NCBI GenBank assembly: GCA_965230915.1
Contig: OZ246395.1
Location: forward strand, 858,431-922,430
Origin: an uncultured Candidatus Saccharibacteria bacterium
GTDB taxonomy: Bacteria > Patescibacteriota > WWE3 > 2-01-FULL-39-13
Reading direction: 5' to 3'
Length of the DNA stretch: 64,000 nucleotides
Both the position numbers and the translations under genes were made by a program. Below, in pieces: positions 17,866 through 34,218 of the stretch (position 1 is the stretch's first letter; each line of letters opens with the position of its first letter). The notes beneath the pieces were generated by a model. It worked only from the letters and a program-made list of their open reading frames with translations, made no database searches and was not told the DNA's origin.

Positions 17866-17942
17866 TTGAGGGAGAAAAGGTAGTTAATAACGCTTGATAA
17901 AGGATACTGGTTAAAGTGGTTAATCTGTGAAAATTATATGTC

Positions 17943-17982
17943 TCCGCGGGCTGGACGTTATCAGAACTGAGGTTTTAGAATT
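17943..17982. repeat. att-like direct repeat, copy 1: the 14-nt 3' end of tRNA-Asn (TCCGCGGGCTGGAC) plus 26 nt identical to copy 2. Left boundary of the tRNA-Asn island
   Basis: 40/40 identity with 18645-18684. The first 14-15 nt equal the 3' acceptor/T-arm end of the tRNA at 19228-19302. Confidence 0.85.
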
Positions 17983-17984
17983 TA

Positions 17985-18046
17985 TTGAAGTTGTTTCGAC
18001 TTGACCTTCCCAAATCTCATCAGACACTAAGTGTAACAACTTGCAA
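17985..18046 (-). ncRNA. Type III hammerhead ribozyme (HHR-1), immediately 3' of gene 18131..18532
   Basis: Minus-sense 5'-UUGCAAGUUGUU^ACAC-UUA-GUGU-CUGAUGA-GAUUUG-GGAAGGU-CAAGUC-GAAA-CAACUUCAA. Conserved CUGAUGA and GAAA cores. Stem I is 4 bp with a triloop, stem II 6 bp with loop GGAAGGU, stem III 7 bp including A15.1:U16.1. Cleavage triplet GUU. Two paralogs covary. Confidence 0.85.
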
Positions 18047-18130
18047 GAATAAAGTATGACTGAGATTTCGGTATTTGAAACCGATTGAAGTGTAGCGCTA
18101 GGCTAAACTCTATTAATCTCAAGCAATACT

Positions 18131-18532
18131 CTACCCTTGCCTCTTGTGTGCTACTTTAAACTTGACCATACCGGCGCTCGTCATGAGCATCCATGATCCT
18201 GGGATAAACTGCACCCAGCCGTCGATCTCAATCTCATCGCCACCATTCCCTCGGTAAACCGAAGCTATTATGTTCAGGACTTTATCCCTGAACTCATCAG
18301 CAACAGTTTCCACAACCTCGCCAGGATTCGTCTGAATCTCGACATACAAATGTGCCGCATCTGGATCCACACTCAAAATCTCTAATCCAAACGCATTCAC
18401 GATTATATCGTCACTTGGCAAGCCATAATCCGTACCCGCCATAACCTTTACTTCACGGCGAATTTTATCTGTGGAATCAATCAAAAATGTCTTAACTCCA
18501 AGATCCATAGCTAACAGTTTAATCAGTGGCAT
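18131..18532 (-). CDS. Hypothetical 133-aa protein, GC-richer cassette gene P1
   Basis: Own promoter (TTTAAA-17-TATAAT) and SD AAGGAG 9 nt before the ATG; followed by HHR-1. No recognisable domain. Confidence 0.7.
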   Translation of the reverse strand: MPLIKLLAMDLGVKTFLIDSTDKIRREVKVMAGTDYGLPSDDIIVNAFGLEILSVDPDAAHLYVEIQTNPGEVVETVADEFRDKVLNIIASVYRGNGGDEIEIDGWVQFIPGSWMLMTSAGMVKFKVAHKRQG

Positions 18533-18585
18533 GGCTTTCGACTCCTTTTGCCATTTCTAAAACATACCTATTCGGAATTAATAGG

Positions 18586-18623
18586 ATTGTGCATGATTAT
18601 ACTATAAATACAGGTCGATTTAA
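18586..18623 (-). promoter_or_regulatory. Sigma70-type promoter of cassette P1 (TTTAAA-17-TATAAT) with upstream CCCATAGTATTT motif
   Basis: rc of 18586-18591 is TATAAT, rc of 18609-18614 is TTTAAA, spacer 17. Motif CCCCATAGTATTT directly upstream, next to the att repeat. Confidence 0.6.
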
Positions 18624-18644
18624 ATACTATGGGGCATAAATGGG

Positions 18645-18684
18645 TCCGCGGGCTGGACGTTATCAGAACTGAGGTTTTAGAATT
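18645..18684. repeat. att-like direct repeat, copy 2 (identical 40 nt), separating cassettes P1 and P2
   Basis: TCCGCGGGCTGGACGTTATCAGAACTGAGGTTTTAGAATT is identical to 17943-17982, 703 bp away. Confidence 0.85.
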
Positions 18685-18694
18685 AGTTAATTGG

Positions 18695-18760
18695 AAATAA
18701 AAAAACCGCCTCATGATTTTGATTGTCGTAATGACTTTCGCGTCATAAAGCGGGTTAATC
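18695..18760 (-). terminator. Terminator-like structured region 3' of cassette gene P2 (nested hairpins, then UUUUUUUAUUU), where P1 has a hammerhead instead
   Basis: Minus-sense CCGCUUUAUGACGCGAAAGUCAUUACGAC...CAUGAGGCGGUUUUUUUAUUU; the inner AUGAC-GCGAAA-GUCAU hairpin sits inside a longer imperfect stem. Confidence 0.4.
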
Positions 18761-18785
18761 TAAACAGGTTAAGGGTTAGATTCCC

Positions 18786-19139
18786 TTACTTGAGGAGCTT
18801 TAGCTCAGATAGAGGGGGATATGCTGATCCCCAAAAGAAATACTTATCCGAAAATCCAGAACCACTCAATAGTAAGTAGCTAACCGAGGCCATAGGTGTC
18901 GAAGTAAATCGATATTGGTTCCTATCAATTTCCGTCAAGCCAACTCGCCCGTTTCCCCAGACCATAACGCCTGCTAACAGCTGAGGTAAGTATGTTTTCC
19001 GATGTTCTCCTAAATAGGAGTACACTGGGAACATCATTTGGATCAACTCTTCATCCGAGTTGCTAAATACAGGAATCCGCCCCTCTGCTAGAGTCTTTGC
19101 CCAACCACTTACGATAGCATTTAAATCGTCGGTGATCAT
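18786..19139 (-). CDS. Hypothetical 117-aa protein, cassette gene P2, first gene after tRNA-Asn
   Basis: ORF directly downstream of a consensus promoter abutting the tRNA; visibly higher G+C than flanks; no recognisable domain. Confidence 0.65.
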   Translation of the reverse strand: MITDDLNAIVSGWAKTLAEGRIPVFSNSDEELIQMMFPVYSYLGEHRKTYLPQLLAGVMVWGNGRVGLTEIDRNQYRFTSTPMASVSYLLLSGSGFSDKYFFWGSAYPPLSELKLLK

Positions 19140-19186
19140 TATGTCCTCTTTCTTTGTGGATGAACCTTCTAATGAGAATTTGTGAG

Positions 19187-19215
19187 ATTTTAACAGTTTA
19201 CGACAAGCCTGTCAA
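19187..19215 (-). promoter_or_regulatory. Consensus sigma70 promoter (TTGACA-17-TAAAAT) immediately 3' of tRNA-Asn, reading into P2
   Basis: rc of 19210-19215 is TTGACA, rc of 19187-19192 is TAAAAT, spacer 17. Preceded by CCTATAGTG. Confidence 0.65.
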
Positions 19216-19227
19216 CACTATAGGATA

Positions 19228-19302
19228 CGTGGCTCCGCGGGCTGGACTCGAACCAGCAACCTCGAAGTTAACAGCTTCTTGCTCCACCATTGAGCTACCG
19301 CG
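19228..19302 (-). tRNA. tRNA-Asn (anticodon GTT), CCA encoded
   Basis: rc gives TCCGCGG-TA-GCTC-AATGGTG-GAGC-A-AGAAG-CTGTTAA-CTTCG-AGGTT-GCTGG-TTCGAGT-CCAGC-CCGCGGA-G-CCA, a cloverleaf with 7-bp acceptor stem, U33 and anticodon GUU. Confidence 0.9.
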
Positions 19303-19319
19303 GAATATTGGTGCTGCAG

Positions 19320-19348
19320 AGATTTTACTATAGAAACCAGGATTTTCC
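19320..19348 (-). promoter_or_regulatory. Promoter of tRNA-Asn (TTGGAA-17-TAAAAT)
   Basis: Minus-sense CGTTGGAAAATCCTGGTTTCTATAGTAAAATCTCTGCAGC, ending ~15 nt before the tRNA 5' end. Confidence 0.6.
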
Positions 19349-19413
19349 AACGAGAATAAAGCTATTTTGAACATCTTAATGAACAAATCTTCAAATTAAT
19401 ATATCCTTAATTT

Positions 19414-19950
19414 ATGTTCTTTAGACGAACAAAAAATCGAAATACCGGTTCATACATCCGCGACGGCGTATTTGCTGCAAATGACGGCATTATTACCACC
19501 TTTGCAGTTATAGCCGGGTCACAAGGTGCGGGCATTACAGCCGCAGTTGTCATTATTTTAGGCTTTGCAAACCTTTTCGCCGACGGCTTTTCTATGGCCA
19601 GTGGAAACTACCAAGGTATAGAAAGCGAAGAAGCGTACAACAGAGCAAAACACCTCTTTATTCCTCGCGAATCAGAGCCGGCACTTTTGCTACACCCGAT
19701 AATTACCTTCTTATCTTTTATAGTAGCCGGGCTAGCACCACTTTTGCCATATATTTTAGGGCTAGAAAATGAATTCGAGCTTTCTATGGCACTTGTCGCA
19801 GTTTCACTTTTTGCAGTCGGATGTGTTCGAGGATACTATTCAAACAAGGCATTTTTCAGATGCGGATTAGAAAGCCTGGCCATCGGAGGAATTGCAGCAG
19901 CAACTGCTTATTTCATAGGTTACTTTATAGAAACCTACGTTATTAAATAA
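19414..19950 (+). CDS. VIT1/CCC1-family (DUF125) membrane protein, putative Fe/Mn transporter
   Basis: ANDGIITTFAVIAGSQGAG signature plus multiple TM segments. Confidence 0.75.
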   Translation: MFFRRTKNRNTGSYIRDGVFAANDGIITTFAVIAGSQGAGITAAVVIILGFANLFADGFSMASGNYQGIESEEAYNRAKHLFIPRESEPALLLHPIITFLSFIVAGLAPLLPYILGLENEFELSMALVAVSLFAVGCVRGYYSNKAFFRCGLESLAIGGIAAATAYFIGYFIETYVIK

Positions 19951-19955
19951 TCAAA

Positions 19956-20330
19956 TTACCAAGATTTTAAAAAACTTTCTTTAGAATAATCAGTCTTAGA
20001 ATCTTCAAAATAACTATCTTTATTGTTTGCTAAAAAATTGTCCACAGCGCTTTTGTTAAAAACTCTAAATAAAATTGCAATCGGAGTTAGGAACACATAA
20101 AAAACTATAGACAGAATAACTTTCGACATTACCTTGCCCATTGCTTCAGAAAATTGCAGCCAGTAGGTCGAAATTACTCGATTTAATTTAAAATAAATTA
20201 TGTCGTTAATTAAAAGCCAAGCAGCGACTAATATAAAAATTTTGTTTTCTGTAAAGTAAAATAAAACCAAAAAAAATAGTAGAAGCGCATTTATTGTTTT
20301 ATAAACCTCTGAGTCAGAAAGTTTTTTCAT
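19956..20330 (-). CDS. Small polytopic membrane protein (SxtJ-like partner of the carbamoyltransferase). Start moved to the internal ATG MKKLSD...
   Basis: The track ORF starts at a TTG that overlaps the DUF5989 gene; the internal ATG at 20328-20330 sits 2 nt after the DUF5989 stop. 3-4 hydrophobic helices. Confidence 0.6.
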   Translation of the reverse strand: MKKLSDSEVYKTINALLLFFLVLFYFTENKIFILVAAWLLINDIIYFKLNRVISTYWLQFSEAMGKVMSKVILSIVFYVFLTPIAILFRVFNKSAVDNFLANNKDSYFEDSKTDYSKESFLKSW

Positions 20331-20331
20331 T

Positions 20332-20484
20332 TTAAAACAATGTATAAATAAATGGCGAAAGTGCGGTGCCTGAAGTTGACACAATTAACAACCCAACTAT
20401 TAATAAAATAATAATGATTGGCAACAACCACCATTTTTTATTTTGTATTAAAAAGTCGAATAAATCTTTTAAAGTTTCTAGCAT
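20332..20484 (-). CDS. DUF5989-family (SxtK-like) 50-aa membrane mini-protein; absent from the ORF track because it is <60 aa
   Basis: Manual translation gives MLETLKDLFDFLIQNKKWWLLPIIIILLIVGLLIVSTSGTALSPFIYTLF*. The KKWWLLPI...PFIYTLF pattern is typical of small proteins found next to NodU/CmcH carbamoyltransferases. 2-nt gap to the upstream stop. Confidence 0.7.
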   Translation of the reverse strand: MLETLKDLFDFLIQNKKWWLLPIIIILLIVGLLIVSTSGTALSPFIYTLF

Positions 20485-20485
20485 A

Positions 20486-22351
20486 TTAATCAGTTCCTGC
20501 CCTACTAATCATATCGTATTTTTCGACAAATTCTGGCTGCGAATTTTTGTCGAAAAAAAAGTTTCCCATCACTAAATAGTCCATATCAGTTTTCATAAAG
20601 CACAAATATGCTTCATGTGGAGAACAAACGATAGGCTCTCCCCGAACGTTAAAACTTGTATTTACGATTACTCCATAGCCGGTCTTCTCTTTAAATGCAC
20701 TTATTAGCTCCCAATATTTTGGATTTGTATCTTTATTTACCGTTTGTAAACGAGCCGAATAATCTAAATGCGTAATTGCCGGTAAATTCGACCTTTGAAA
20801 ATATAATTTCGGTTGAACATCTAATGCATGATAATTTTGGGGCAACGGTTTGCGAAGTTCTTTGACAATATCAGCGACCAACAGCATATATGGCGATGTA
20901 ATATTTATATCAAAATATTTTTGCGTATCCTCTTGCAGAACCGACGGAGCAAATGGACGAAACCCTTCGCGAAATTTTATTTTTAAGTTTAGCTTTTTTT
21001 GCATTTCAGGATTTCTGGCATCACCTAAAATGCTGCGATTGCCAAGTGCACGAGGTCCCCATTCCATTCTGCCTTGAAACCAACCAACGACATTTCCTTC
21101 AGATAAAAGCTCGGCTGCTTTTTTGGTTAAATCATTAAAATTTTCATAGTATTTAAATTGAGCGTTAAAATTTTTTGCAACGCTTTTAATTTGTGAATCA
21201 CTAAATTCCGGGCCCAAATAACTGCCTTGCATCGAATCATTTTCATTTACTTTTCTATTGCCACCAAAATATAGATAGTATGCTGCGAGCGCGGCGCCTA
21301 AAGCTCCTCCAGCGTCGCCGGCGGCGGGTTGAATCCAGATATTTTTAAATAATTTTTCTTTTACAATTTTGCTGGTAGAAACACAATTTAGGGCGACGCC
21401 TCCCGCTAAACATAAATTTTCTGAACCGGTTAAAGCTTTTGTAGTACGTGCCATTTTTACAACGACTTCATCTGTAATTTGCTGAATAGCCAGAGCTAAA
21501 TTACAATGGCACTGTTCCAAATTTTGTTCAGGATCACGAGTTTTAAATCCAAATAATTTCTGCCATTTATCTTCGTTTATCATTCGTTCACCAATACAAT
21601 AATCAAAATATTCTTGATTTAAGTATATTGATCCATCACTCTTTATATCTACAATTTCTTGTTTAATAATTTCTTTATACTTTTTGATATCGGGCGATTG
21701 AGGATTTCCATATGGAGCCAAACCCATTAATTTATATTCACCCGAATTTACTTTGAATCCAAGAAAATATGTGAATGACGAATATAAAAACCCTAAAGAA
21801 TTTGGGAAATTCATTTCCTTTATATTTGTTATCTTATTGCTGACACCGTGTGAAATAGAAGCCGTTGCCCATTCACCAACGCCATCAATTGTTAAAATTG
21901 CAGCTTCTTCAAAAGGTGATGGATAAAATGCACTCGCAGCGTGCGACAGGTGATGGTCAGAAAATAAAATTTTATTTAACTTTGCGTCACTATCAATTTT
22001 TTTCAGTTCCTTTTTTATTTCTTCTTTTAAAAATAATTTTTCTTTAATCCAAACCGGAATTGCATTTAAAAATGAAACTAATCCACGCGGGGCAAAAATA
22101 TAATATGTTTCAATTAATCTTTCGAATTTTTTGAATGGCTTATCATAAAAAACAACGTTATCTATTTCGTTTAAACTAATATCGGCAAATTCCAAACAAA
22201 ATTTAATTGCATTAGTAGGAAATAATGCGTCTTGTTTTTTTCGTGTAAATCTTTCTTCTTGTGCCGCCGCAATAATTTCCCCATTTTTTATAAGTGCCGC
22301 TGCTGAATCGTGGTAAAAGGCTGAAATTCCAAGTATATATTTATCGTTCAT
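20486..22351 (-). CDS. Carbamoyltransferase, NodU/CmcH family (621 aa)
   Basis: YILGISAFYHDSAAALIKNGEIIAAAQEERFTRKK N-terminus and HHLSHAASAF motif. Confidence 0.85.
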   Translation of the reverse strand: MNDKYILGISAFYHDSAAALIKNGEIIAAAQEERFTRKKQDALFPTNAIKFCLEFADISLNEIDNVVFYDKPFKKFERLIETYYIFAPRGLVSFLNAIPVWIKEKLFLKEEIKKELKKIDSDAKLNKILFSDHHLSHAASAFYPSPFEEAAILTIDGVGEWATASISHGVSNKITNIKEMNFPNSLGFLYSSFTYFLGFKVNSGEYKLMGLAPYGNPQSPDIKKYKEIIKQEIVDIKSDGSIYLNQEYFDYCIGERMINEDKWQKLFGFKTRDPEQNLEQCHCNLALAIQQITDEVVVKMARTTKALTGSENLCLAGGVALNCVSTSKIVKEKLFKNIWIQPAAGDAGGALGAALAAYYLYFGGNRKVNENDSMQGSYLGPEFSDSQIKSVAKNFNAQFKYYENFNDLTKKAAELLSEGNVVGWFQGRMEWGPRALGNRSILGDARNPEMQKKLNLKIKFREGFRPFAPSVLQEDTQKYFDINITSPYMLLVADIVKELRKPLPQNYHALDVQPKLYFQRSNLPAITHLDYSARLQTVNKDTNPKYWELISAFKEKTGYGVIVNTSFNVRGEPIVCSPHEAYLCFMKTDMDYLVMGNFFFDKNSQPEFVEKYDMISRAGTD

Positions 22352-22395
22352 TACAAAGTATTTATATAGTGAAGAAGTTTTTTGAGCAATAGAAT

Positions 22396-23607
22396 CTATT
22401 TAGAAAATACTTTGTTTTGTATTATCTTTGAAACAAATTCGTGGCCAAGTTTATTCCAATGCGCATCTTTTATATAATAAAATTTTTGCCAATCACTTTC
22501 ATTCATGAAATCTTCGGACAAATTTATAATATGACTTTCTTCATAACCTGCAGAAATAATTGCGTTTTTGAAAGTATTAAGTGGGAGGTCTCCATCAATA
22601 TCTGAACCTTCATAAGGCGCTTTATAACTATCTTCTTTTATTTTTAAATTTAACCTAGAAGGAATCACCACAAAATACATATCGATACCTTTTTCATCTG
22701 AAATCTTTTTTGCTTCAATTAAAACCTGCTTTAATTTTTCGTATACTGCATCGCGGTCCGGCTGAAAAGTTTTATTTACATCATCAAAACTTGTGTATTT
22801 ATTATTTGAAATATTTTTATCGTACAAAATTATTTCCTTAGTCTCATAACAGTTTTTATATACACGTACACCTTTATTGTCTGACTCAACTCGGACTACG
22901 TTTGCTCGCGCTTTTAAATAAGTCCCAAAAGAAGAATGTTCTATAAGTGGAACAACCGTACTTTCTACTAGTGGCCTTAATAAACTAGAGATAGGGGAAT
23001 TATCTGAGAAATAACTTTTATCACCCGGACAATTTTTAGACCATTCGCCAGGCATCATAGTTACAATATGCGACGGATAAAAACTCCATACAACTTTTTT
23101 TGGACTTAGCAATTCTACGTCTCGTTTAAAAGCTGCTAATTGTACATCGAAAGGACCACCCCAAATTCCAGCATTATTCATATTTAAAAGTGCAGGAAAA
23201 CTTTCATTATCATTTACCCCAAACCCAAATGTAAATGAATCACCAACAGCTAAAGGTCTACCAACTTCTGAGTCTATAGAGGTTTTACGCAAACCGTATT
23301 GATCAATATGATAAATATATTCCCATTCGGGGCCGCAATGAACCACATAACTATTCTGAGGATAACTATTATAGACAAGTGAATAACCGAATGAAGAGAT
23401 CAGAGTATTCTGTTCTACATCGCCACATTTTTCTTTCATTAAATTATCTTTTGTTGCGTTTATATTGTAGAAAATGGTTTCTGAAATAAACCAAGTCACT
23501 AAAATAGTAATAATTAAAATTGAAATTTTTCCAAAAATTGATTTTGAGGAAGATTTTTTAGGATTCTCGGAATTTATAAATTGAGCATTTTCTTGATCGA
23601 ATTCCAC
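22396..23607 (-). CDS. Membrane-anchored SGNH/GDSL-family hydrolase-like protein (AlgX/AlgJ-like, possible polysaccharide O-acetylation or esterase role)
   Basis: N-terminal TM; block I AVGDSFTFGFG; block V DAHWNKLGH (DxxH). Confidence 0.6.
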   Translation of the reverse strand: MEFDQENAQFINSENPKKSSSKSIFGKISILIITILVTWFISETIFYNINATKDNLMKEKCGDVEQNTLISSFGYSLVYNSYPQNSYVVHCGPEWEYIYHIDQYGLRKTSIDSEVGRPLAVGDSFTFGFGVNDNESFPALLNMNNAGIWGGPFDVQLAAFKRDVELLSPKKVVWSFYPSHIVTMMPGEWSKNCPGDKSYFSDNSPISSLLRPLVESTVVPLIEHSSFGTYLKARANVVRVESDNKGVRVYKNCYETKEIILYDKNISNNKYTSFDDVNKTFQPDRDAVYEKLKQVLIEAKKISDEKGIDMYFVVIPSRLNLKIKEDSYKAPYEGSDIDGDLPLNTFKNAIISAGYEESHIINLSEDFMNESDWQKFYYIKDAHWNKLGHEFVSKIIQNKVFSK

Positions 23608-23623
23608 TTTTCAAGTCTAGATT

Positions 23624-23935
23624 TTAGAAAGCATATTTGCAAACACCCATTTGGTCGGGATAAGTCGGTTCGGGATAAACACATTTTTGTCCAATCGGAC
23701 AACTTTTACCTGTGAAACCTCCACATTTAATTTCTGATGGCATTAGCACATTTTTATCTGCAAAATTTAGCTGATAGAAAAAAATAACGATAATTCCGAG
23801 GGTCATCAATATTCCTAATAACAACAAAAAGGATTGTGTAGCGTTGTAGGTTTCTTTAGCCATATTATAGGATTCCCAATGAATAATTTGTTCGCGTCTA
23901 TATTTATTGTATAGCGGTATTAATATAAGCGTCAA
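23624..23935 (-). CDS. Small membrane protein with Cys-rich C-terminus (likely starts at internal MAKETY..., ~80 aa)
   Basis: One TM helix (LLLLGILMTLGIIVIFF) then CGGFTGKSCPIGQKCVYPEPTYPDQMGVC with 5 Cys. Confidence 0.45.
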   Translation of the reverse strand: MTLILIPLYNKYRREQIIHWESYNMAKETYNATQSFLLLLGILMTLGIIVIFFYQLNFADKNVLMPSEIKCGGFTGKSCPIGQKCVYPEPTYPDQMGVCKYAF

Positions 23936-23948
23936 TAAAACAGAAAAA

Positions 23949-23973
23949 GGCGGAGTTAATCTCCGCCTTTTTT
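23949..23973 (-). terminator. rpoD terminator (GGCGGAG-TTAAT-CTCCGCC flanked by A/T tracts, bidirectional type)
   Basis: Hairpin directly after the rpoD stop; minus-sense U-tract UUUUUCUGUUUUAUU. Confidence 0.75.
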
Positions 23974-23976
23974 AGA

Positions 23977-25260
23977 TTAGTTTAAGTAATCTCTTAGCTT
24001 TCTACTTCGAGATGGATGTCTTAGCTTTCTTAAGGCCTTCGCTTCGATCTGTCTGATACGTTCGCGTGTAACACCAAATACTTTTCCGACTTCTTCTAAG
24101 GTTCTTGGCTTATGATCTTTTAGACCAAAGCGCAATTCTAAAACTTTGCGTTCGCGTTCACTTAAAGTATCTAAAACACCTTCAATATGGCCTTTTAGTA
24201 ATTCATATGAAGCCATATCTTCTGGAGTTTCAGCATCTTCATCGTGAATGAATTCAGCAAGTTCCGTATCTCCTTCTGTACCAACTTTAGCTTGCAAGCT
24301 TGATGGTTCTTGAGAAATTTTTAGAATTTCTTCGACTTTTGCAGGTTCAATTTTTAGAACACGACCAATTTCTTTCGCGGTTGGCTCTCTTTCGTATTTT
24401 TGCTCAAGTTCACGTTGTACACGTTTTAACTTATTGATTGTTTCAATCATATGAACAGGAATACGAATTGTTCTAGCCTGATCAGCAATTGCGCGTGTAA
24501 TGGCTTGTCGAATCCACCATGTTGCATATGTTGAGAATTTAAATCCTCTTCTCCAATCAAACTTGTCGACAGCACGCATTAAACCGATATTCCCTTCTTG
24601 AATTAAATCAGAGAAAGTTAACCCACGATTCATATAACGTTTTGCGATAGAAACAACAAGTCTCAAGTTTGAATTGATCAACTTTTCGCGAGCTTTTTTC
24701 ATTTTGAAAGTCTTGCCGTTTTTTGTGAAATCTTCTAATTGCTGTTTCGCTTCTTCGACTCTATCTTTTTGCTGCTTATCGGTCATTTCGTTTTCGATCA
24801 TTAACTTCGCAATGTGTTTATAAGTTGGATGTTTTAATCCCTGCTTAGTTAATGTTTCCATGGCTTCTTTGTAACCTATGGCTTCGATCATTTTTGCAAG
24901 TTCGATTTCTTCTTTACCTGTTAACAAAGTTTCGCGTCCAATTTCTCGTAAATACATGCGAACTGGATCTCCAGTTATTGCGCGGTCTAATGTTGACTGT
25001 AAAGTCGTATCGTTTAATTCTTTTTCTAAATCAGCTAGTTCTTGATCAGAAACAAGTTCTACTTGCTCGACATCAGTAACTTCGATTTTTTCGTCGGCAA
25101 AAGTTGAATATAATGCATCAAGCAAATCAACATCTTCTTCAGCCTCTGGAACTGCGGCCATAACTTCTTTATAGGTTACATAACCTTTACTTCGACCTTT
25201 GGTCACAAGGTTTTTGATTTTTGGATTGCCTTCTAGGCGTTTCTGAATTTCTTCTGACAT
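23977..25260 (-). CDS. rpoD: RNA polymerase sigma-70 factor RpoD
   Basis: Regions 2-4 conserved: [37 protein letters not shown]...[25 protein letters not shown]; C-terminal HTH. Confidence 0.95.
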
Positions 25261-25266
25261 GAATTA

Positions 25267-27111: not shown

Positions 27112-27180
27112 ATTAAAAATTCAAAATGAAAATATTAGTTTCACTATAGCAGAATATTTTATTTATAAATTTAATACTGT

Positions 27181-27230: not shown

Positions 27231-27253
27231 AACGCAATGTTCGATAACTTTTC

Positions 27254-27871: not shown

Positions 27872-28022
27872 AAAAACCCGTCTCTTTCTTCTATTGAACA
27901 CTGTGCAGCAATTCTGCGGCAATATTATACCACCCCATAGTATCTACTGCCCTTTTAATAACCTATCTAGTGCTTTTTTATATTTTCACCGGACAATAAA
28001 ACTGTTACCATTAAATTACAAA

Positions 28023-28721
28023 ATGAAAAAAAGAAATTTAATACTAACCATAGTACTTTTCATTCTCTTTCTTATCGGAACCTATTCCAGTCAATTCTTA
28101 TATAAAAATTTTTCTAACCAAGCTGCATTAGATATAGATGGATTAACCGGAGAATATGACCCTCTTCATACAACAGCCATTTTTAATAATGAAATGGTTT
28201 TCGTACCATCGCAACAATTTGCAGACGCGCATGTATTGGGCGATGACGACTCAGAAGATATAGAAGATCCAGATTATAAACGCATTGAAGTCGATTTAAC
28301 TAATCAAAAATTATATGCATTCGAAGGCGATAAAAAAGTTATGGAATTTTTAGTATCAACAGGAAAATGGGGAAAAACTCCAACGGGTGAATTTAGAATT
28401 TGGACAAAACTTCGCTACACAAGAATGTCAGGAGGAAGCAAAGAGCTACGAACCTATTACAATTTACCGAATGTTCCATTTACAATGTTTTTTTCTAATG
28501 CTGAAATTCCTGCATCTCGCGGATTTGGAATTCACGGAACTTATTGGCACGATAACTTCGGACACCCTATGAGTCACGGATGTGTAAATATGAAAACCGA
28601 AGAAGTTGAACAATTATACTATTGGGCAAACCCTGAACTTGGGGAAGAAAAATCTATTCGGGCAACGAAAGATAATCCTGGAACAAAAATTATTATCTAC
28701 GGAAAAGCTCCCAATTATTAA
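28023..28721 (+). CDS. L,D-transpeptidase (YkuD domain) with N-terminal signal/TM
   Basis: GIHGTYWHDNFGHPMSHGCVNM catalytic His/Cys motif. Start placed at MKKRNLILTIVLFILFLIG because the upstream track start overlaps the convergent gene. Confidence 0.8.
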   Translation: MKKRNLILTIVLFILFLIGTYSSQFLYKNFSNQAALDIDGLTGEYDPLHTTAIFNNEMVFVPSQQFADAHVLGDDDSEDIEDPDYKRIEVDLTNQKLYAFEGDKKVMEFLVSTGKWGKTPTGEFRIWTKLRYTRMSGGSKELRTYYNLPNVPFTMFFSNAEIPASRGFGIHGTYWHDNFGHPMSHGCVNMKTEEVEQLYYWANPELGEEKSIRATKDNPGTKIIIYGKAPNY

Positions 28722-28791
28722 AAATTTGAAGGTATAGCAGAAGACAAACTTAACATTGTATGCACAATGAAAGCTCGCCTTCTGCGTCAAC

Positions 28792-29613
28792 CTAGTTACT
28801 AAACAAGTATGGAATCAACAACTGTCGTTGTGGCGCGGGTTCATCCAAAAATCGGATTACTTTGGAGTTTCCAATTTTCAGAGAATAGATGTCGACTGCT
28901 TTATCGATCGTCATAGGAATACTTACAGCAGTCGCACCGCCGTCGGCGTTAAGCGCGAAGCCACTGATCAGATTTCCATTCTGCTCGATGCTCCAGCCGG
29001 AAACTTCTTGCGCAGTGAAATCTATTTCACCTGAGACCTTGAGTTCAAATGAAGTAAAAACTTTCGAATCTACGATCTCGATGAAATCACGATCGCCAAA
29101 ATACTGAGCGGTTGGCAGAATTCTGAATTCGCCGTCCTGCAGTTGAAAGTTAGGCTCTTTGCCTTTCCCAAACGAGAAATGGTTGAGGTCAATAAGGCCA
29201 ATCTGACCGGCTTCGCCTGTTACAGTGTATTGAACCGCAAACAAAATACGCGTTCCTTGGGCCGTAATGGTATAAGGATTATCGAACCTCAAATCAATCT
29301 GTGATGTACGCAGATTTTGATCGATAGACCCACCCGCAAATCCGAGTATAGATGCTGCAGTCATTGTTATATTACTGAACTGCAAAATCTTAGGATCTGC
29401 TCTCAAACCGACCTCAATATTAGTGACTTCGTAATCACTTATATCGGATGCGTAAATGGGAATGGTAACAAGCGTGCCTGGAGCACCCTTGAACGGACTA
29501 ACCGTGACGACAACGTCTGAAAGTTGGGCATTAACAATTGACCAACCTACAAGCATCGCAACTACTGCCAAAAGTAGCGGAATTACAAGCATAATCCAGC
29601 GGCGGATATACAT
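28792..29613 (-). CDS. Secreted hypothetical protein (signal peptide, beta-rich), islet gene B
   Basis: MYIRRWIMLVIPLLLAVVAMLVGWSIVNAQ signal; strong SD GGAGGA 7 nt before the ATG; upstream CCCATAGTTAT motif. Confidence 0.65.
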   Translation of the reverse strand: MYIRRWIMLVIPLLLAVVAMLVGWSIVNAQLSDVVVTVSPFKGAPGTLVTIPIYASDISDYEVTNIEVGLRADPKILQFSNITMTAASILGFAGGSIDQNLRTSQIDLRFDNPYTITAQGTRILFAVQYTVTGEAGQIGLIDLNHFSFGKGKEPNFQLQDGEFRILPTAQYFGDRDFIEIVDSKVFTSFELKVSGEIDFTAQEVSGWSIEQNGNLISGFALNADGGATAVSIPMTIDKAVDIYSLKIGNSKVIRFLDEPAPQRQLLIPYLFSN

Positions 29614-29854
29614 CGGGTTCCTCCATATATAAACAAAACCATCTCGGGGTAACTAGGTTATCAATGTTCTAACGAACAAGATAATTCTACATTTTTATAA
29701 GCGCTTTGGCTATAACTATGGGTTTCGTATTTAATTTTGATAATTGGGAAAAATTGAATTTTCCAGGACGTCACTAATTGTTTCTTTAAAGGCTTTTGGC
29801 CCTTCATTGCAATTGCAATGAGAAACATTTAGTGACGCCTGGTCTTGCACGAAC

Positions 29855-30478
29855 TTAGAGAGCTAACGTGACAAAGTCGTAGTTGGTTTTGCCAGCCTCA
29901 GAATATCCACTTTGGATATCTTTGGTGCCGGCTTTGACCACAAGGCGCTTCACAACATCGAACTCGACGACAGAGTCGCGAGTTTCGGTCTCGAGCGGAA
30001 GCTCGATCGTCACGATCTCACCGACCATGATGCGGCCGGAATAGGCGACTTGCTTCATGAACTTGCGCTGGCTTTCCTTCAGCAAGTAATACTTGCTGCC
30101 GCCATCGTCACGGTACTCTGACCATTCGGAATCCGGAATTAACGCTATTACACCTAGCTGAGTCTTCAAACGAGCGTCTTCCCAGCGGGCAGAACCGCCT
30201 TTCGGGAAATCAGCAAACACATGCCCAACGGGGCGCTGCGGCTTTACGTTATCCGGGTCGGCAACGATAATACCGACGCGCGTAAACGCTAGGTCGTAAG
30301 TCAAATCCCCCGTCGGAATATAGCACGGCAACATTTCGATGCGCCGGCGGCGATCTGCCTCCTCGTACATCTTAATTGTGACCGGCATAAGTTTCGGCTC
30401 GCCAGCTTTCACAGGCACAGTCAATTCGACGCCGACCAACAACTCTTCCTCAGTGTACATACGCATAAGACCTGTCAT
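29855..30478 (-). CDS. Hypothetical protein, GC-rich islet gene C (start at internal ATG MTGLMRMY)
   Basis: Promoter TTGGAA-16-TATAAT (-10 is rc of 30534-30539) lies inside the longer track ORF, so M20 is used with purine-rich RBS AGAAAGAGAGAC. Visibly GC-rich. Confidence 0.6.
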   Translation of the reverse strand: MTGLMRMYTEEELLVGVELTVPVKAGEPKLMPVTIKMYEEADRRRRIEMLPCYIPTGDLTYDLAFTRVGIIVADPDNVKPQRPVGHVFADFPKGGSARWEDARLKTQLGVIALIPDSEWSEYRDDGGSKYYLLKESQRKFMKQVAYSGRIMVGEIVTIELPLETETRDSVVEFDVVKRLVVKAGTKDIQSGYSEAGKTNYDFVTLAL

Positions 30479-30533
30479 TTTTGTCTCTCTTTCTATAGTG
30501 TGCAATATATCCTGCCTTTGCAAGAATGGCTGC

Positions 30534-30576
30534 ATTATACCTCATTTTAGGGGATTTTCCAAATACTATGGGATGG
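30534..30576 (-). promoter_or_regulatory. Promoter of islet gene C: CCATCCCATAGTATT-TTGGAAAATCC-...-TATAAT-GCAGCC, sharing TTGGAAAATCC and GCAGC with the tRNA-Asn promoter
   Basis: Direct comparison with 19320-19348 (minus sense). Confidence 0.55.
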
Positions 30577-30652
30577 AACCAGGGGAATATTAGCCTGTAA
30601 CAGCGCAATTGCTGCACCATCGGCTCCAGGCATATGTTGTAATAAAAATTAT

Positions 30653-31855
30653 CTACAAATCCTCAATAGCTGAAACCTCGATATTTAAACCCCTAGAGGC
30701 GACCATACTTTTTGCTTCATCAATTCTATCTTTTGGTACAAAAATAATTCGAATCCCTTCGATCGGAACACCATCTTTTAAACAAATCTCAGATTTATAG
30801 TCACTCTGTGGAATAATAACTTCAGAGGTAATTCCAGAATATTCTCCGGTAGTTTTATCTTGCTGTCTCCAGCTAACATCGCTGCCTGTCTGGATATCAG
30901 CCCCCACAAAATATAAAACAGGAAAGCTTTCTCTGATAAGCTGTTCGTGTTCTTTTTCTTTGTCATTTTTATCCGGTTTTTGTAAAAAAGCTAAGGTGTC
31001 TTGTAAATCTCTGATTTTTATTTGTATCGACTCGTAAAAAACATTTTCTTCACCCATTTTTTGTGCGCGTTCAGTAAACTCTCTTAAATCCCTTCTAATT
31101 GATTCTTCTGAAACACCCCCGTCACCTCTTTTAGCATATCCTACTGCATCTTTATAGTCATTCAACTTAGCTAAACTTATGTATTTATTATTTAAATTTG
31201 CACTCCCAAAAACGCCTTCCCCGGAAGCGATCGGCATTTTGTCACGAAGAAATTCTTGAGGCCTTAAACCATGATCAAGAACACCTTGTAATGATGCGCT
31301 GGTTGAACCATGCGCGCCAAAAACCCCATTTTCAAAGATGGATAAAGCTAAGTCTGGGTTATCAGCATACAACTCTGCATATAGCTGGCGATCTTCAAGA
31401 AAATCTGTATAGTTCCATTTACCTAATCTTTCTTCAGGGCTTACAGAACGGCCCAATAATTCGCCATCAAAGACAATTTTATTTATAGCTTCCAGTCTTC
31501 TTCTTTTCTCTTCTTCATTAATCGGTAAATATTCAAGTTTAGCCAAACAACTTTGATAAGAATTAAATAAATTTTGATAACCCCAACCAGCAATGAACTG
31601 GTCAACTTCTGAAAGATTGCTCATAAACTCATCTTTTAGGCCTTCTTCGTCTGGCTGTTCTGTTGATTGTGGAACTTCTTGAGGTTGTGGCTTTTGCTCT
31701 TGGGTTATCGAATAGATACCACTATGGGTATTAATTAGGTTTGGATTAATACTAAAATAGCCCTTTTCATCGCCGGCTTGATCGGACAATTTAAATTCTT
31801 CAGGTGTAGGATCATTTATGCCTTCTATAGCATAAATCGAGTCTGAGCTTGGCAT
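30653..31855 (-). CDS. Hypothetical 400-aa protein abutting the left att repeat of the tRNA-Arg island
   Basis: Long ORF, AT-rich like the host; no recognisable motifs; ATG 27 nt downstream (minus sense) of the att fragment, with no SD. Confidence 0.65.
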   Translation of the reverse strand: MPSSDSIYAIEGINDPTPEEFKLSDQAGDEKGYFSINPNLINTHSGIYSITQEQKPQPQEVPQSTEQPDEEGLKDEFMSNLSEVDQFIAGWGYQNLFNSYQSCLAKLEYLPINEEEKRRRLEAINKIVFDGELLGRSVSPEERLGKWNYTDFLEDRQLYAELYADNPDLALSIFENGVFGAHGSTSASLQGVLDHGLRPQEFLRDKMPIASGEGVFGSANLNNKYISLAKLNDYKDAVGYAKRGDGGVSEESIRRDLREFTERAQKMGEENVFYESIQIKIRDLQDTLAFLQKPDKNDKEKEHEQLIRESFPVLYFVGADIQTGSDVSWRQQDKTTGEYSGITSEVIIPQSDYKSEICLKDGVPIEGIRIIFVPKDRIDEAKSMVASRGLNIEVSAIEDL

Positions 31856-31881
31856 TACTTAAATAATATCATTAGAAGTTA

Positions 31882-31894
31882 TGGTGCACCCAAG
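31882..31894. repeat. att-like direct repeat: 13-nt copy of the tRNA-Arg 3' end (TGGTGCACCCAAG); left boundary of the tRNA-Arg island
   Basis: Identical to 34142-34154 (the 3' end of the tRNA at 34142-34218). Confidence 0.7.
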
Positions 31895-31944
31895 TGATGT
31901 TAATTGGAATCGGGTTTTTGAATTTATATTGAAATTTTAGGAAA

Positions 31945-31998
31945 GTAGTTTCGACTTGATCTTCCCAAGTCTCATCAGGGACTATGTCCGACTAGAAC
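31945..31998 (-). ncRNA. Type III hammerhead ribozyme (HHR-2), 3' of gene 32105..32845
   Basis: Minus-sense 5'-GUUCUAGUC^GGAC-AUA-GUCC-CUGAUGA-GACUUG-GGAAGAU-CAAGUC-GAAA-CUACU. Canonical GUC cleavage triplet. Stem I and II covary with HHR-1 and HHR-3. Confidence 0.85.
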
Positions 31999-32104
31999 AC
32001 CGGAAAGAGAGGTTGAAGAAAAAATTGCAACGATTACTCGCGCAGCTTCAACATCTTCCGATGTTCGGTTGATCTACAAAATTCAAAATGAAATTCGCCG
32101 AAAA

Positions 32105-32845
32105 CTAGGCAGACTTCTCAATCCTCTTGAGTGCCAAAGCCTTCTGGCCAAATGGATTGACTTCCAACTGCTCATTATACTTGGGCAAGGCGTTTATTAG
32201 AGGCAAATGCTGATCCTCCATATATCCAAGCCCTATAAAACGATCCGCCAAAGCCTCATCGCGAAGATACATTCCCCGAGAATGAATCGCCTGCCTAAAC
32301 AGGGCAATATCATCATGACTGAGAGCTTCAACATCTGAATTCTCGAGGAGAAATCCCCACTTTTTAGCGAAACCTTGAAGGCCTTTTGCATCCATAGACG
32401 AAATCGCCTGATGTGAGTATTTAACTCTTAGGCCGGCCACGAAATCAGCGAATGGCATGTACCAAAACTCTTCAGTTCGTAAACGAACTTCTTCTGGTTC
32501 CCATTCATAACCTGTGGCAAAAATACCTAGAGCCACAACTCGATCATTCAGTTCTTCAGTCCACCCGCGGTGGCGGATAGTTTCGCGAAGATAAGGCGTG
32601 TCCTCGATCCCCGAAATATCTTCCTCCGTCACATCAAAGAGCCAACCCTGCAGGTACTGCAATAGGCTGACCTCCGTTGTTCCGAACATCATTAATCCGG
32701 TCAGCCCACCATTGGCAGAGTGCGCCTTGTTCGTTGGCCGAGCAGGTATACTGGGAACTGCTTCCTGTGCGACTTGCTCTTCGACCTTTGAAAAAGGAAA
32801 CAAATTAACAACAAACGATACGAAGGTGTTGATAATGTTTTGCAT
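32105..32845 (-). CDS. Hypothetical 246-aa protein, GC-rich cassette gene P3
   Basis: SD AGGAGA 10 nt before the ATG; followed by HHR-2. Confidence 0.7.
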   Translation of the reverse strand: MQNIINTFVSFVVNLFPFSKVEEQVAQEAVPSIPARPTNKAHSANGGLTGLMMFGTTEVSLLQYLQGWLFDVTEEDISGIEDTPYLRETIRHRGWTEELNDRVVALGIFATGYEWEPEEVRLRTEEFWYMPFADFVAGLRVKYSHQAISSMDAKGLQGFAKKWGFLLENSDVEALSHDDIALFRQAIHSRGMYLRDEALADRFIGLGYMEDQHLPLINALPKYNEQLEVNPFGQKALALKRIEKSA

Positions 32846-32881
32846 GGTAGAAGTTTCTCCTGCTTACTGAAAGTTTTTATA

Positions 32882-32925
32882 TTGCTCGAAGTAACTTTCG
32901 ATTACTCAAAAACTAATTCGAGCAA
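32882..32925. repeat. Inverted repeat TTGCTCGAA-(26 nt)-TTCGAGCAA between cassettes P4 and P3
   Basis: Perfect 9-bp arms read directly; lies between HHR-3 and the P3 start. Confidence 0.45.
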
Positions 32926-32953
32926 TATATTTGTAGATCAATTTTTAATGTAC

Positions 32954-33010
32954 AAAACTGTTTTCGATCTGAGCTTCCCAGATCTCATCAGGCGCTATGC
33001 GCGAACAGCG
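32954..33010 (-). ncRNA. Type III hammerhead ribozyme (HHR-3), ~270 nt 3' of gene 33281..33838
   Basis: Minus-sense 5'-CGCUGUUC^GCGC-AUA-GCGC-CUGAUGA-GAUCUG-GGAAGCU-CAGAUC-GAAA-ACAGUUUU. Stem I GCGC/GCGC and stem II GAUCUG/CAGAUC; both covary against the paralogs. Confidence 0.85.
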
Positions 33011-33280
33011 GGCAAAAGTGAAGCGGAAAGCAAAAGATTAGATAATGATCGAAATGATCATCAAATTCTCATGCTTTAAAAACATGCTTCACTGCCCGTC
33101 TGGCAAACTTTGAAACGAATCCAATGTAGAATTCCCTGAGCTAGTATTTGACACTTTAAGCTATTCCTAGGTAAGTATCTTTCGATCTTACACACTATCA
33201 ATAGCGCCGTACCTTGCGGTCTTGGCAGTCTTGAGCTTTTCATCGGGCTCGTGTTGGATTTACAAACTTCTTACTACCAC

Positions 33281-33838
33281 CTACTTGGGTTCGTATATCC
33301 ACTCGATGTGGTCGAATACGAATGGGCGCGGCGCTTCAACAGAGACGATGGCTTTTAGGCCAGCCTCTTCGATTTTCGCCTTTGGATTGGCGAAGGAGAT
33401 GATCTCCTGCAAAGCGCTTTCCCTCGTCCCATCACGGCCTTCCTGGTGATACCAGACAGGAATTTCCTTCGTCTGAGGACCACTCGGCATAGCCGAAGGA
33501 ACAGAAACCACGACACCCATCCGCGGAAGCGGAACTAGATCTCTCGCGAAATCAGCGGAGGTAAAACCTTCCCATGGAAGTCGTACTAAATCCTTCACAC
33601 CTTCCTGCCAAACCACTACTTTCAGTAGTGCCGATGCCAACGGCGCCGGTACATTCTGAAACAACAAAACTGCATCCTTCTCGACAGCCTTTTTTGCCAA
33701 ATCCAAAAGGACTGGCTTTGTCTCCTCGCCCGTTGCGGGGAAGGTGACATTGATGGTTTCGACAACCTCAACTTGGAGTGTGCCGAAGTCTGGGGCGTGC
33801 CGACCAATAACAATAGCGCGAATCGTTGCATTTTGCAT
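33281..33838 (-). CDS. Hypothetical 185-aa protein, GC-rich cassette gene P4
   Basis: RBS GAAAGGG; ~250-nt leader from a consensus promoter next to tRNA-Arg; followed by HHR-3. Confidence 0.7.
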   Translation of the reverse strand: MQNATIRAIVIGRHAPDFGTLQVEVVETINVTFPATGEETKPVLLDLAKKAVEKDAVLLFQNVPAPLASALLKVVVWQEGVKDLVRLPWEGFTSADFARDLVPLPRMGVVVSVPSAMPSGPQTKEIPVWYHQEGRDGTRESALQEIISFANPKAKIEEAGLKAIVSVEAPRPFVFDHIEWIYEPK

Positions 33839-34095
33839 GGTGCTTTCAACCCTTTCAAGATTGAAACTTACATCAGTTTCTAAGCTCCCATTGGAGTTAG
33901 CTTCAGATCACCTGAAGAAACAACCTACGTTTTTCCATCGTAAGCTGATTCCTCAGGCAATCTTCAATTAGTTTGCCAAATTTTTAATGTACTTTTTGAG
34001 ACTTTTTGTGGGGTATAGCCTTTAGGGCCTTGCCGTTAAAAAAGCTCAGAAATCAATGGACTTTTTGATATCCGAACCTTTCAACTTAATGGCTA

Positions 34096-34124
34096 CATTA
34101 TATTACGAAAAGGCTAGCCTGTCA
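34096..34124 (-). promoter_or_regulatory. Perfect consensus sigma70 promoter (TTGACA-17-TATAAT) immediately 3' of tRNA-Arg, reading into the island
   Basis: rc of 34119-34124 is TTGACA, rc of 34096-34101 is TATAAT; preceded by CCTATAGTA. Confidence 0.7.
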
Positions 34125-34141
34125 ATACTATAGGCTAGTGT

Positions 34142-34218
34142 GGTGCACCCAAGAGGATTCGAACCTCTGGCCTCAACTTCCGCAAAGTTGCGCTCTATCC
34201 AGCTGAGCTATGGGTGCT
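34142..34218 (-). tRNA. tRNA-Arg (anticodon GCG), CCA encoded
   Basis: rc gives GCACCCA-TA-GCTC-AGCTGGATA-GAGC-G-CAACT-TTGCGGA-AGTTG-AGGCC-AGAGG-TTCGAAT-CCTCT-TGGGTGC-A-CCA. Arg-type D and T arms; anticodon loop UUGCGGA. Confidence 0.85.

Follow-up and report, generated by a model that had tools for sequence, protein, structure and literature searches.

What are the short gene units that follow two tRNA genes on the chromosome of an uncultured Candidatus Saccharibacteria bacterium, and why are three of their four genes followed by a self-cleaving ribozyme? We have analyzed a stretch of 64,000 nucleotides (hereafter the window; assembly GCA_965230915.1, contig OZ246395.1, positions 858,431 to 922,430) in which a tRNA-Asn is followed by two tandem units, A and B (the Asn array), and a tRNA-Arg by one two-gene unit (the Arg islet), with three hammerhead ribozymes (HHR1, HHR2 and HHR3) among them. 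An earlier reading of the letters and open reading frames (ORFs), here called the original prediction, had proposed a family of ribozyme-terminated cassettes accumulating at tRNA genes without an integrase of their own, and had compared them with integron cassettes. The reading that we favor, with a confidence only somewhat better than even, is that these are tRNA-integrated islets mobilised in trans, whose orphan-gene transcripts would be freed from the RNA downstream by a Patescibacteria-specific hammerhead serving as a processing module of the 3' untranslated region (3'UTR) or between cistrons.

A type III hammerhead subfamily

A 30-nt pattern drawn from the three copies, CTGATGAGNNNTGGGAAGNTCANNNCGAAA, has exactly three matches in the window, all of them on the minus strand, and none in 100 shuffles. 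HHR1 (17986-18044), HHR2 (31941-31999) and HHR3 (32954-33012) all have three helices around the core with helix III open, the arrangement that defines type III, and their catalytic core is complete (C3-A9, G12-A14 and A15.1-U16.1, with U, C and C respectively at H17). The same core, i.e., C3 U4 G5 A6 N7 G8 A9, G12 A13 A14, A15.1-U16.1 and a non-G H17, was present in the three window copies and in 23 of 23 aligned homologues; U16.1 does not vary, and G was never found at H17 (column 10 of the alignment contains only U, C or A). The window copies differ from each other by compensatory changes in stems I, II and III. Over the 23 distinct homologues 98.1% of the stem cells were paired, 10 of the 16 pairs had changes on both sides, and the covariation score was 0.613, compared with 0.04–0.13 when the partners were slid and 0.187 when they were shuffled.

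A covariance model built from the homologue alignment (R1) detected only the three copies over the window, at 70-75 bits (70.8 for HHR1, 70.2 for HHR2 and 75.3 for HHR3). Rfam at its gathering thresholds found only the two tRNAs; its Hammerhead_3 model (RF00008) gave 28.3 bits to HHR2 and 20.6 to HHR3 and did not report HHR1, for a gathering score of 48.5 that is a curated cut-off and not a structural criterion. Permissive Rfam scans of the window gave these two sub-threshold Hammerhead_3 matches and nothing else credible. Judged by core and pairing, this is a structurally valid type III hammerhead subfamily that the curated Rfam threshold misses, and the covariation argues that the ribozyme is under selection. 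The cleavage sites are predicted between 18035 and 18034 in HHR1 (after U17), between 31990 and 31989 in HHR2 (after C17) and between 33003 and 33002 in HHR3 (after C17), always on the minus strand.

The signature of the subfamily is a stem I of 4 bp with a NUA loop, together with a nearly invariant loop II (UGGGAAGNUCA). With RF00008 (clan CL00010) it has in common the identical core CUGAUGA...GAAA, the open helix III with helices I and II closed, a stem-I loop NUA closed by C-G that resembles the RF00008 consensus, and cleavage triplets of the NUH type (GUU, GUC and UUC here). It departs from that family in the 4-bp stem I, the near-fixed loop II and the sub-gathering scores, in the fusion of the hammerhead to a covarying upstream domain of ~100 nt in one high-GC clade, and in its distribution, restricted among named organisms to Patescibacteria with the exception of one metagenome-assembled genome (MAG) labelled Pseudomonadales. 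Since the subfamily is missed by Rfam thresholds, hammerheads are probably under-counted in Patescibacteria, a very large uncultured radiation.

Layout of the Asn array and the Arg islet

Read on the minus strand from the tRNA, the Asn array consists of unit A, a 40-nt repeat, unit B and the 40-nt repeat again. Its proximal boundary (the attL side) is an intact tRNA-Asn(GTT) with encoded CCA (19230-19304; ARAGORN, and 64.3 bits with the Rfam tRNA model). Unit A (18660-19229, about 0.57-0.59 kb) carries a sigma-70-like promoter, TTGACA-17-TAAAAT (19215-19187, 11 of 12 consensus positions), with CCTATAGTG just before it, the ORF of P117 (19139-18786) and, around 18756-18699, an intrinsic terminator made of a stable hairpin followed by U7 (z = -3.7); it has no hammerhead. 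Between the units lies an internal att-like repeat (18645-18684) formed by a copy of the tRNA-Asn 3' end (18645-18659, matching at 14 of 15 nt, the mismatch being the discriminator base) and a 26-nt arm, AATTCTAAAACCTCAGTTCTGATAAC (blastn-short E = 5.8e-4). Unit B, of 0.70 kb, begins with the promoter CCCCATAGTA followed by TTTAAA-17-TATAAT (18596-18633, hexamers at 18624-18596, 10 of 12), continues with the orphan ORF of P133 (18131-18532; P1 of the original prediction), which has an AAGGAG Shine-Dalgarno sequence, and ends with HHR1. The outer boundary of the array is a distal att-like repeat (17942-17982) in which a tRNA-Asn 3' core (17942-17956, 15 of 15 nt) is joined to the same 26-nt arm (E = 1.5e-4). 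The 40-nt repeats, 17943-17982 and 18645-18684, are identical and spaced by 702 nt (repeat families D3 and D4).

The Arg islet (2.26 kb) starts at an intact tRNA-Arg(GCG) (34141-34217, minus strand; ARAGORN and Rfam) and contains, in this order on the minus strand, a promoter, a leader, P185, a possible 55-aa ORF, HHR3, P246, HHR2, an arm and a 13-nt copy of the tRNA-Arg 3' end. The promoter, CCTATAGTA followed by TTGACA-17-TATAAT (34097-34134, hexamers at 34125-34097), matches the consensus at 12 of 12 positions. P185 (33281-33838) is followed by the possible small protein ORF55 (33076-33243), P246 (32105-32845) is an orphan ORF, and the distal att-like repeat (31882-31925) consists of an arm similar to that of the Asn array, AAATTCAAAAACCCGATTCCAATTAAC, and then the 13-nt tRNA-Arg 3'-end copy (31882-31894, E = 2e-3). 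An exact 14-mer, GTACATTAAAAATT, found twice where 0.16 matches would be expected, brackets the P185-HHR3 segment: its upstream copy (33979-33992) lies at the start of the P185 5'UTR and its downstream copy (32940-32953) directly 3' of HHR3.

No promoter was predicted between HHR3 and the start of P246, so that P185-HHR3-P246-HHR2 looks like one transcript; P400, the host gene just past the Arg repeat, probably belongs to it as well, and the whole would be cut into pieces at the predicted sites. Regarding ORF55, a weak comparison made by eye with a relative on a short metagenomic contig (L042:1757-1828) indicated that the start and the first ~20 residues are kept, with conservative substitutions, which suggests that it may be a real small protein. 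If so, HHR3 would come after a small ORF, as another hammerhead does on contig L027, described below.

The main description in the original prediction was borne out by this layout: three cassettes with hammerheads, authenticated by core and covariation, and one with a terminator, the P117 hairpin and its U7. The units are also GC-richer than the host, as it had stated (0.41, 0.41 and 0.45 versus 0.36-0.37 in housekeeping genes), although the excess is modest and amounts to at most 1.6 standard deviations of 700-bp windows. A sigma-70 promoter for each cassette, also claimed, applies to three of the four genes, P246 being the one for which none is predicted.

No function could be assigned with Pfam, PHROGs, PADLOC or NCBIfam to P117, P133, P185, P246, P400 or P207, the last a resident protein near the Arg islet. 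For P133 the only match among 5.8 billion clusters was itself, and so it was for P246 among 1.84 billion cluster representatives. P185 belongs to a small family of unknown function with six proteins including the query. Its AlphaFold2 model (pLDDT, the predicted confidence of the model, 79) had no significant match in a fold search of the PDB, and sequence searches of the PDB were empty, as was tblastn against phage genomes. The homologue search that the original prediction had called for has therefore left P133 and P246 as orphans, P185 with five relatives and P117 with no match to a family. The distant homologues of P185 are on contigs with a phage-like look, i.e., dense same-strand small ORFs, DUF551 and GIY-YIG.

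Insertion at tRNA 3' ends

The window is a chromosome segment carrying rpoD, dnaG, metG, pgk, alaS and recF, and the nearest named relatives of its methionyl-tRNA synthetase (MetRS) are from candidate division WWE3 and other Patescibacteria. In one relative, contig L039, with a MetRS 85% identical, the order is MetRS, tRNA-Arg(GCG) (11490-11566), P201, a long hairpin, P271, YkuD, DnaG and RpoD. P201 and P271 are 30 and 38% identical to P207 and P273 of the window, and the hairpin is homologous. The tRNA-Arg site of L039 is empty: it has neither the islet, nor a hammerhead, nor a second copy of the tRNA-Arg end. Since L039 is syntenic and its site empty, the segment 34140-31895 is an insertion into the 3' end of the tRNA-Arg gene. 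P400, with a host-like GC content, is also missing from L039.

The islets at the two tRNAs share both ends. On the left, CCTATAGTrTTGACAGGCT comes straight after CCA; on the right, a hammerhead or a terminator is followed by the arm AAATTCnAAAACC...TAAC (which can also be written AAATTCNAAAACC...TAAC) ahead of the tRNA core. Judged by these common ends, the two islets can be taken as one family. What is found thus agrees with tRNA-integrated islets in the intact tRNA and the distal 3'-end repeat (Asn and Arg) and in the empty related site (Arg); an integrase inside the element is lacking. That the units are bounded by tRNA 3'-end repeats at two different tRNAs, as first proposed, therefore holds, and the comparison of tRNA loci among relatives that had been suggested was made for tRNA-Arg, with the empty site as its result. 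At the tRNA-Asn, the empty site would be expected as the tRNA joined straight to ACATATAATTTTC, and the circle junction of an excised unit as ...GATAAC-GTCCAGCCCGCGGAG-CCAYNTAT....

We searched for recombinases in nearly all window ORFs of at least 120 aa, the 2,837-aa ORF at the left edge being left out. No integrase, resolvase or transposase domain was found in the islet ORFs or in the other scanned ORFs of the window, in agreement with the claim that no integrase is encoded in cis. A search of viral contigs for a helper element, by means of the expected attP-type junctions and of the shared left end, gave no match. Because the islets encode no recombinase, we infer that they are mobilised in trans. 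Under this model site-specific recombination would have brought two tandem units into the 3' end of tRNA-Asn and a single two-gene unit into that of tRNA-Arg. With each event the tRNA would have been restored and its displaced 3' end would have become the distal direct repeat, and the integrase would be encoded elsewhere.

Elements of this kind are known, such as the streptococcal cis-mobilisable elements and the cargo-only satellites in the tycheposon islands of Prochlorococcus, which lack an integrase, are flanked by att sites and are mobilised in trans. The islets resemble them in their tandem accretion at a tRNA 3' end, in the direct repeats derived from the tRNA end and in a unit free of recombinase. 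They differ in being much smaller (0.57-0.70 kb for the units with one gene), in their Patescibacterium host, in the distal ribozyme and in that no helper was identified. tRNA-integrated islets can thus be single-gene and without recombinase. The parts of the system have precedents (tRNA islets mobilised in trans, hammerheads bracketing accessory genes), and what is new is the lineage, the unusually small scale and the distinct ribozyme subfamily.

The same data could be explained by decay: larger elements of the integrative or prophage type, at one time with an integrase of their own next to the tRNA, would have been reduced by deletions to a few moron-like genes, and the hammerheads would be incidental phage-type processing signals. 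Integration at tRNA 3' ends is classic for elements bearing an integrase, hammerheads in bacteria often have integrases and prophages in their vicinity (PMC3088659), and the phage-like contigs of the distant P185 homologues go in the same direction. However, the identical 40-nt repeats and the intact promoters, ORFs and ribozymes indicate recent complete units rather than debris, two complete units are in tandem, and islets at different tRNAs have both ends in common. Besides, neither PHROGs nor tblastn against phage genomes detected phage genes or integrase fragments, and the hammerhead subfamily was absent from 2.9 million viral contigs. We therefore regard decay as unlikely, and trans-mobilised islets as the explanation to be preferred.

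The hammerhead at other loci

The same hammerhead variant was found at 30 further loci, 12 in genomes and 18 in metagenomes. The named carriers are Saccharibacteria, WWE3, CPR3 and "Patescibacteria group", the exception being L007, the MAG labelled Pseudomonadales. The hammerhead always lies downstream of an ORF on the same strand, in most loci ~15-440 nt past its stop codon, and usually in a spacer ahead of another same-strand gene; for L004 and L027 the automated search gave no credible upstream ORF. The upstream genes are at some loci small membrane or orphan proteins with strong promoters of their own, and at others housekeeping genes (SAICAR synthetase, purC-like; TypA; an RpoA-CTD-like protein). 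The layout of promoter, small ORF and hammerhead reappears in L002, L008, L010 and L022; the L002 unit, which carries an identical CCTATAGTATTGACA, has rpsG and radC on either side and fusA downstream. Among 128 neighbour proteins from 22 of these loci the recurrent families were EF-G, TypA, TsaD, aminoacyl-tRNA synthetases and ATP synthase, and no recombinase family recurred. tRNA genes are rarely near the hammerheads. Repeats derived from tRNA were limited to this window and one tRNA-like fragment in L008, and none followed the hammerhead at the loci with a same-strand tRNA upstream (L013, L014, L021 and L030). Of the proposed family of ribozyme-ended units, then, the layout stands, since it recurs at these four loci and one case of presence and absence (below) was found, while the accumulation at tRNAs and the repeats are confined to the window and the L008 fragment.

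Several of these loci deserve a description of their own. In L008 (1500-2850, a Saccharibacteria MAG) two tandem units of promoter, membrane-protein ORF and hammerhead end with an arm and the tRNA-3'-like GCGCCCGGGCACCA-TAAC, resembling the Arg islet of the window; upstream there is no intact tRNA and we found DnaA-box-like TTATCCACA repeats and a divergent mraZ-rsmH. In the higher-GC Patescibacteria MAGs L012, L013, L014, L024, L030 and L031 a module of ~150-170 nt without an ORF has the hammerhead at its 3' end (e.g., L031:7715-7880); this module opens with ACGGCCCCATAGTCT right past the stop codon of unrelated genes, ends exactly at stem III and contains covarying hairpins, one of them with a conserved ACCC loop cap. 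In L023 (690-2324; the same sequence in L025, L026 and L029) there is an insertion sequence with a DDE transposase and 23-nt inverted repeats at 690-712 and 2186-2208. We considered whether the hammerhead was a part of it and rejected this, as the ribozyme is outside the element, separated from the right inverted repeat by 58 nt.

A probable role at the RNA level

The position of the hammerheads after ORFs, their setting in spacers, the promoterless P246 and the housekeeping neighbourhoods without recurrent recombinases lead us to favor a role at the level of RNA. The orphan cargo genes would be transcribed from their near-consensus sigma-70 promoters and, in three of the four cases, the polymerase would then pass through a hammerhead that cleaves co-transcriptionally at its own 5' edge, acting on RNA and not on DNA. 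The upstream mRNA would be released with a structured 3'UTR and a 2',3'-cyclic phosphate end, and the RNA downstream (P246, the host gene P400 or antisense read-through) would become a separate RNA with a 5'-OH that keeps the body of the ribozyme. The hammerhead would be in this way a processing or insulating module that travels with accessory genes, rather than a recombination site. Cleavage in vivo, like the trans-mobilisation and any effect on expression, is what we infer from this arrangement.

Roles of this kind have been proposed before. For hammerheads placed around single genes whose identity varies, it was suggested that they divide long bacterial transcripts into mRNAs of the length of one gene (PMC3088659), and processing roles in 3'UTRs and polycistrons have been suggested but are unproven, the role of hammerheads in bacteria being largely elusive (PMC6765202). 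The clusters in prophage regions described by Perreault et al. (2011, PMC3088659) are similar to ours in that several hammerheads bracket single genes of non-constant identity in horizontally acquired DNA. They differ in several ways: here neither phage genes nor an integrase were found nearby, the setting is tRNA islets of 0.6-2.3 kb or spacers between housekeeping genes, the hammerheads are type III instead of mostly type II, and the subfamily is absent from viral contigs.

Two other comparisons are pertinent. Retrozymes and viroid-like circular RNAs also have type III hammerheads and short units of ~0.6-1 kb, but here there are no long terminal repeats, primer-binding site or reverse transcriptase, each unit has one ribozyme, and the units encode proteins and belong to the chromosome of a bacterium. 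The tRNA fragment as the primer-binding site of a retroelement was rejected, given its sense orientation. RiboJ, an insulator of synthetic biology that derives from a type III hammerhead, sits between transcription units and cuts at its own 5' edge, giving a downstream mRNA with a defined 5'-OH end and the ribozyme, independent of what lies upstream. By comparison, the hammerhead described here is natural, its function is putative, and the 3' end created upstream may matter as much as the 5' end downstream.

The original prediction had also speculated on a viroid- or satellite-like logic, by which a unit would leave the chromosome as a circle of DNA, rolling transcription would follow, and the single hammerhead would cut the product to unit length. 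Formally, the 703-bp unit would allow it, since it has one promoter and one hammerhead, lacks a terminator and has identical 40-nt repeats between which recombination could take place. Yet the ribozyme also serves plainly chromosomal genes (purC-like, typA), three distinct hammerheads are directly followed by a terminator (L006/L021, L016 and L018), unit A has a terminator in place of the ribozyme, and neither a replication function nor a ligase is linked to the units. We consider this logic extremely improbable and keep the processing of chromosomal transcripts as our explanation.

Some observations weigh against the account that we prefer. The cleavage on which it depends is a prediction from sequence, and all three copies fall under the gathering score of the Hammerhead_3 model. 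In the 64 kb examined, out of a contig of ~945 kb, no helper integrase came to light. An intrinsic terminator (GC hairpin plus U-run) lies 5-20 nt past three distinct hammerheads in four loci (L006:5780-5867, of which L021 is a duplicate; L016:4937-5030; L018:2203-2300), so the ribozyme is not a simple substitute for a terminator and might either raise or lower stability. Finally, modules of 52 and 152 nt that are identical at different loci and an insertion that distinguishes L027 from L042, both described in the next section, hint at a mobility of the modules that a purely RNA-level account does not predict.

It may be added about L006/L021, L016 and L018 that cleavage would remove the terminator hairpin from the mRNA, something unusual for a self-cleaving ribozyme. 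As for the islets of the window, they provide a simple setting to test hammerhead function in bacteria, with one promoter, one orphan gene and one ribozyme in a unit, a sister unit with a terminator, and an operon with a ribozyme between its cistrons.

Are the hammerhead units mobile cassettes?

The module formed by promoter, leader and P185 is present also on two short contigs, L027 and L042, in neither case beside a tRNA. Both leaders are 74% identical to the one that follows the Arg islet promoter. In L042 the order is leader-GTACATTAAAAATTGAC-P185. L027 has the same sequence plus an insert of 252 nt that contains a Shine-Dalgarno sequence, a hydrophobic ORF of 30 aa and a hammerhead, and that is flanked by GTACATTGAAAG and GTACATTAAAAT (GTACATTRAAA repeats). 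Between HHR3 of the window and L027 the hammerhead with its core is 93% identical and the adjoining P185 region 77%. The small ORF precedes P185 in L027, whereas P185 precedes P246 in the window; because the order differs at a conserved junction, the gene order around this junction varies between genomes. Elsewhere, L024 and L031 have 152 nt that are 100% identical over unrelated flanks, and L020 and L031, found on one contig, have in common only the ribozyme of 52 nt, again 100% identical. These identities suggest a recent copying of hammerhead modules.

One explanation for these data would be that units composed of 5'UTR, ORF, hammerhead and a short core insert and excise at a tRNA 3' end or at short conserved cores, of which GTACATTAAAA is an example, with the hammerhead region as an attC-like signal along with an RNA role or instead of it. 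It would account for L027 as L042 plus a flanked sORF-hammerhead unit, for the exact 14-mer that brackets the P185-HHR3 segment in the window, for a junction better conserved than the P185 region, for the different cassette order in L027 and the window, for the 52- and 152-nt modules, whose copies at unrelated loci are identical and stop sharply where stem III ends, and for the promoter-ORF-hammerhead layout repeated between housekeeping genes, as in L002. Against it, no recombinase was found near the units in the window and none recurred at 22 other loci; flanking direct repeats, when tested across the hammerhead units, were not general; and the repeated cores are outside the ribozyme. The difference between L027 and L042 can equally be a deletion between two functional copies of a 5'UTR motif, a selected ribozyme would show high identity at the junction anyway, and only one polymorphic site is available. 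On balance we find this explanation distinctly unlikely. A broader version would make the hammerhead-tipped units an unrecognised mobile cassette system of Patescibacteria, in which either the 5'UTR-small ORF-hammerhead unit or the 52-152-nt module alone would move, the ribozyme region would be needed, the targets would be GTACATTAAAA-type cores and tRNA 3' ends, and an RNA or single-stranded DNA intermediate could take part with no recombinase in cis. This we judge to be quite improbable, although cassette mobility, if true, would tie a self-cleaving ribozyme to bacterial DNA mobility.

Closely related is the likeness to integrons that had been drawn from the sequence. There are arrayed single-gene modules with a structured 3' element, and one case of presence and absence with short flanking repeats. 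However, there is no IntI, attI or Pc here: no tyrosine recombinase was detected in the scanned ORFs of the 64 kb and none recurred at the 22 other hammerhead loci. Three of the four units have their own near-consensus promoters. What stands at the 3' end is a ribozyme with a three-way junction, in which RNA pairing is conserved, and the repeats are outside it (the att repeat is located ~35-60 nt beyond the ribozyme and not within it), a distinction drawn without a dedicated attC model. The integron comparison was thus not sustained. Nor was that of the hammerhead as an equivalent of attC, since it is found also after purC-like, typA and RpoA-CTD-like genes, and without recurrent recombinases, and since three distinct copies have a terminator next to them. 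The hammerhead remains for us most likely an RNA-processing module of islets mobilised in trans.

The CCYATAGT promoter motif

The original prediction had also tied the att repeat to the promoter motif CCCATAGTATTT as a feature of the cassettes. CCYATAGT occurs at 11 sites in the window (18626, 19217, 27934, 29715, 30565, 31721, 34127, 55691, 55748, 61164 and 61523), five-fold over the 2.1 expected, and mostly directly 5' of the -35 hexamer, as it does in the relatives L002 and L039. The CCCATAGTATTT motif precedes the resident P273, its L039 orthologue and, at 60.7-62.4 kb, the genes of an unrelated small-ORF cluster. A further sigma-70-like promoter (10 of 12) is found at 30562-34. CCYATAGT as the end of an element or as an att feature was hence rejected: the motif is lineage-wide and stands before the -35 hexamer not only of resident genes but also in L039 and in the unrelated cluster. 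It is probably a lineage-specific motif located upstream of promoters or a site of regulator binding. Read as its reverse complement, CCTATAGTG is similar to the initiation region of T7/SP6-type promoters of phages, which is likely a coincidence.

Other features of the window

The cluster just mentioned (60700-62400, plus strand) lies between recF and the uracil-DNA glycosylase gene and contains four small ORFs with a GC of 0.43. Each has its own promoter, CCYATAGT is present at two of them and hairpin terminators at some; the cluster contains neither a hammerhead nor a tRNA and looks like a further patch of accessory single-gene units. A raised GC of 0.43 was found also in two large ORFs outside the islets. 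One, giant in size, exceeds 2,837 aa (1-8511, minus strand) and continues past the left edge of the window, and the other is a 377-aa protein (16732-17865, plus strand) with a C-terminal half that is long, Thr/Pro-rich and repetitive (repeat family D1). Both are probably surface proteins.

Upstream of the promoter of P207, the region 30573-30630 (minus strand, GCGCTGTTACAGGC...CTGGTTCCATCC) has a faint likeness to the anticodon and T-arm region of a tRNA-Asn-like sequence, and could be a decayed tRNA fragment or a product of chance. On the 3' side of P207 there is a very stable long hairpin (29760-29842, minus strand; -42.6 kcal/mol, z = -7.2) without a U-run, which is kept in L039 (12310-12375) behind the orthologue although the two proteins are only 30% identical.

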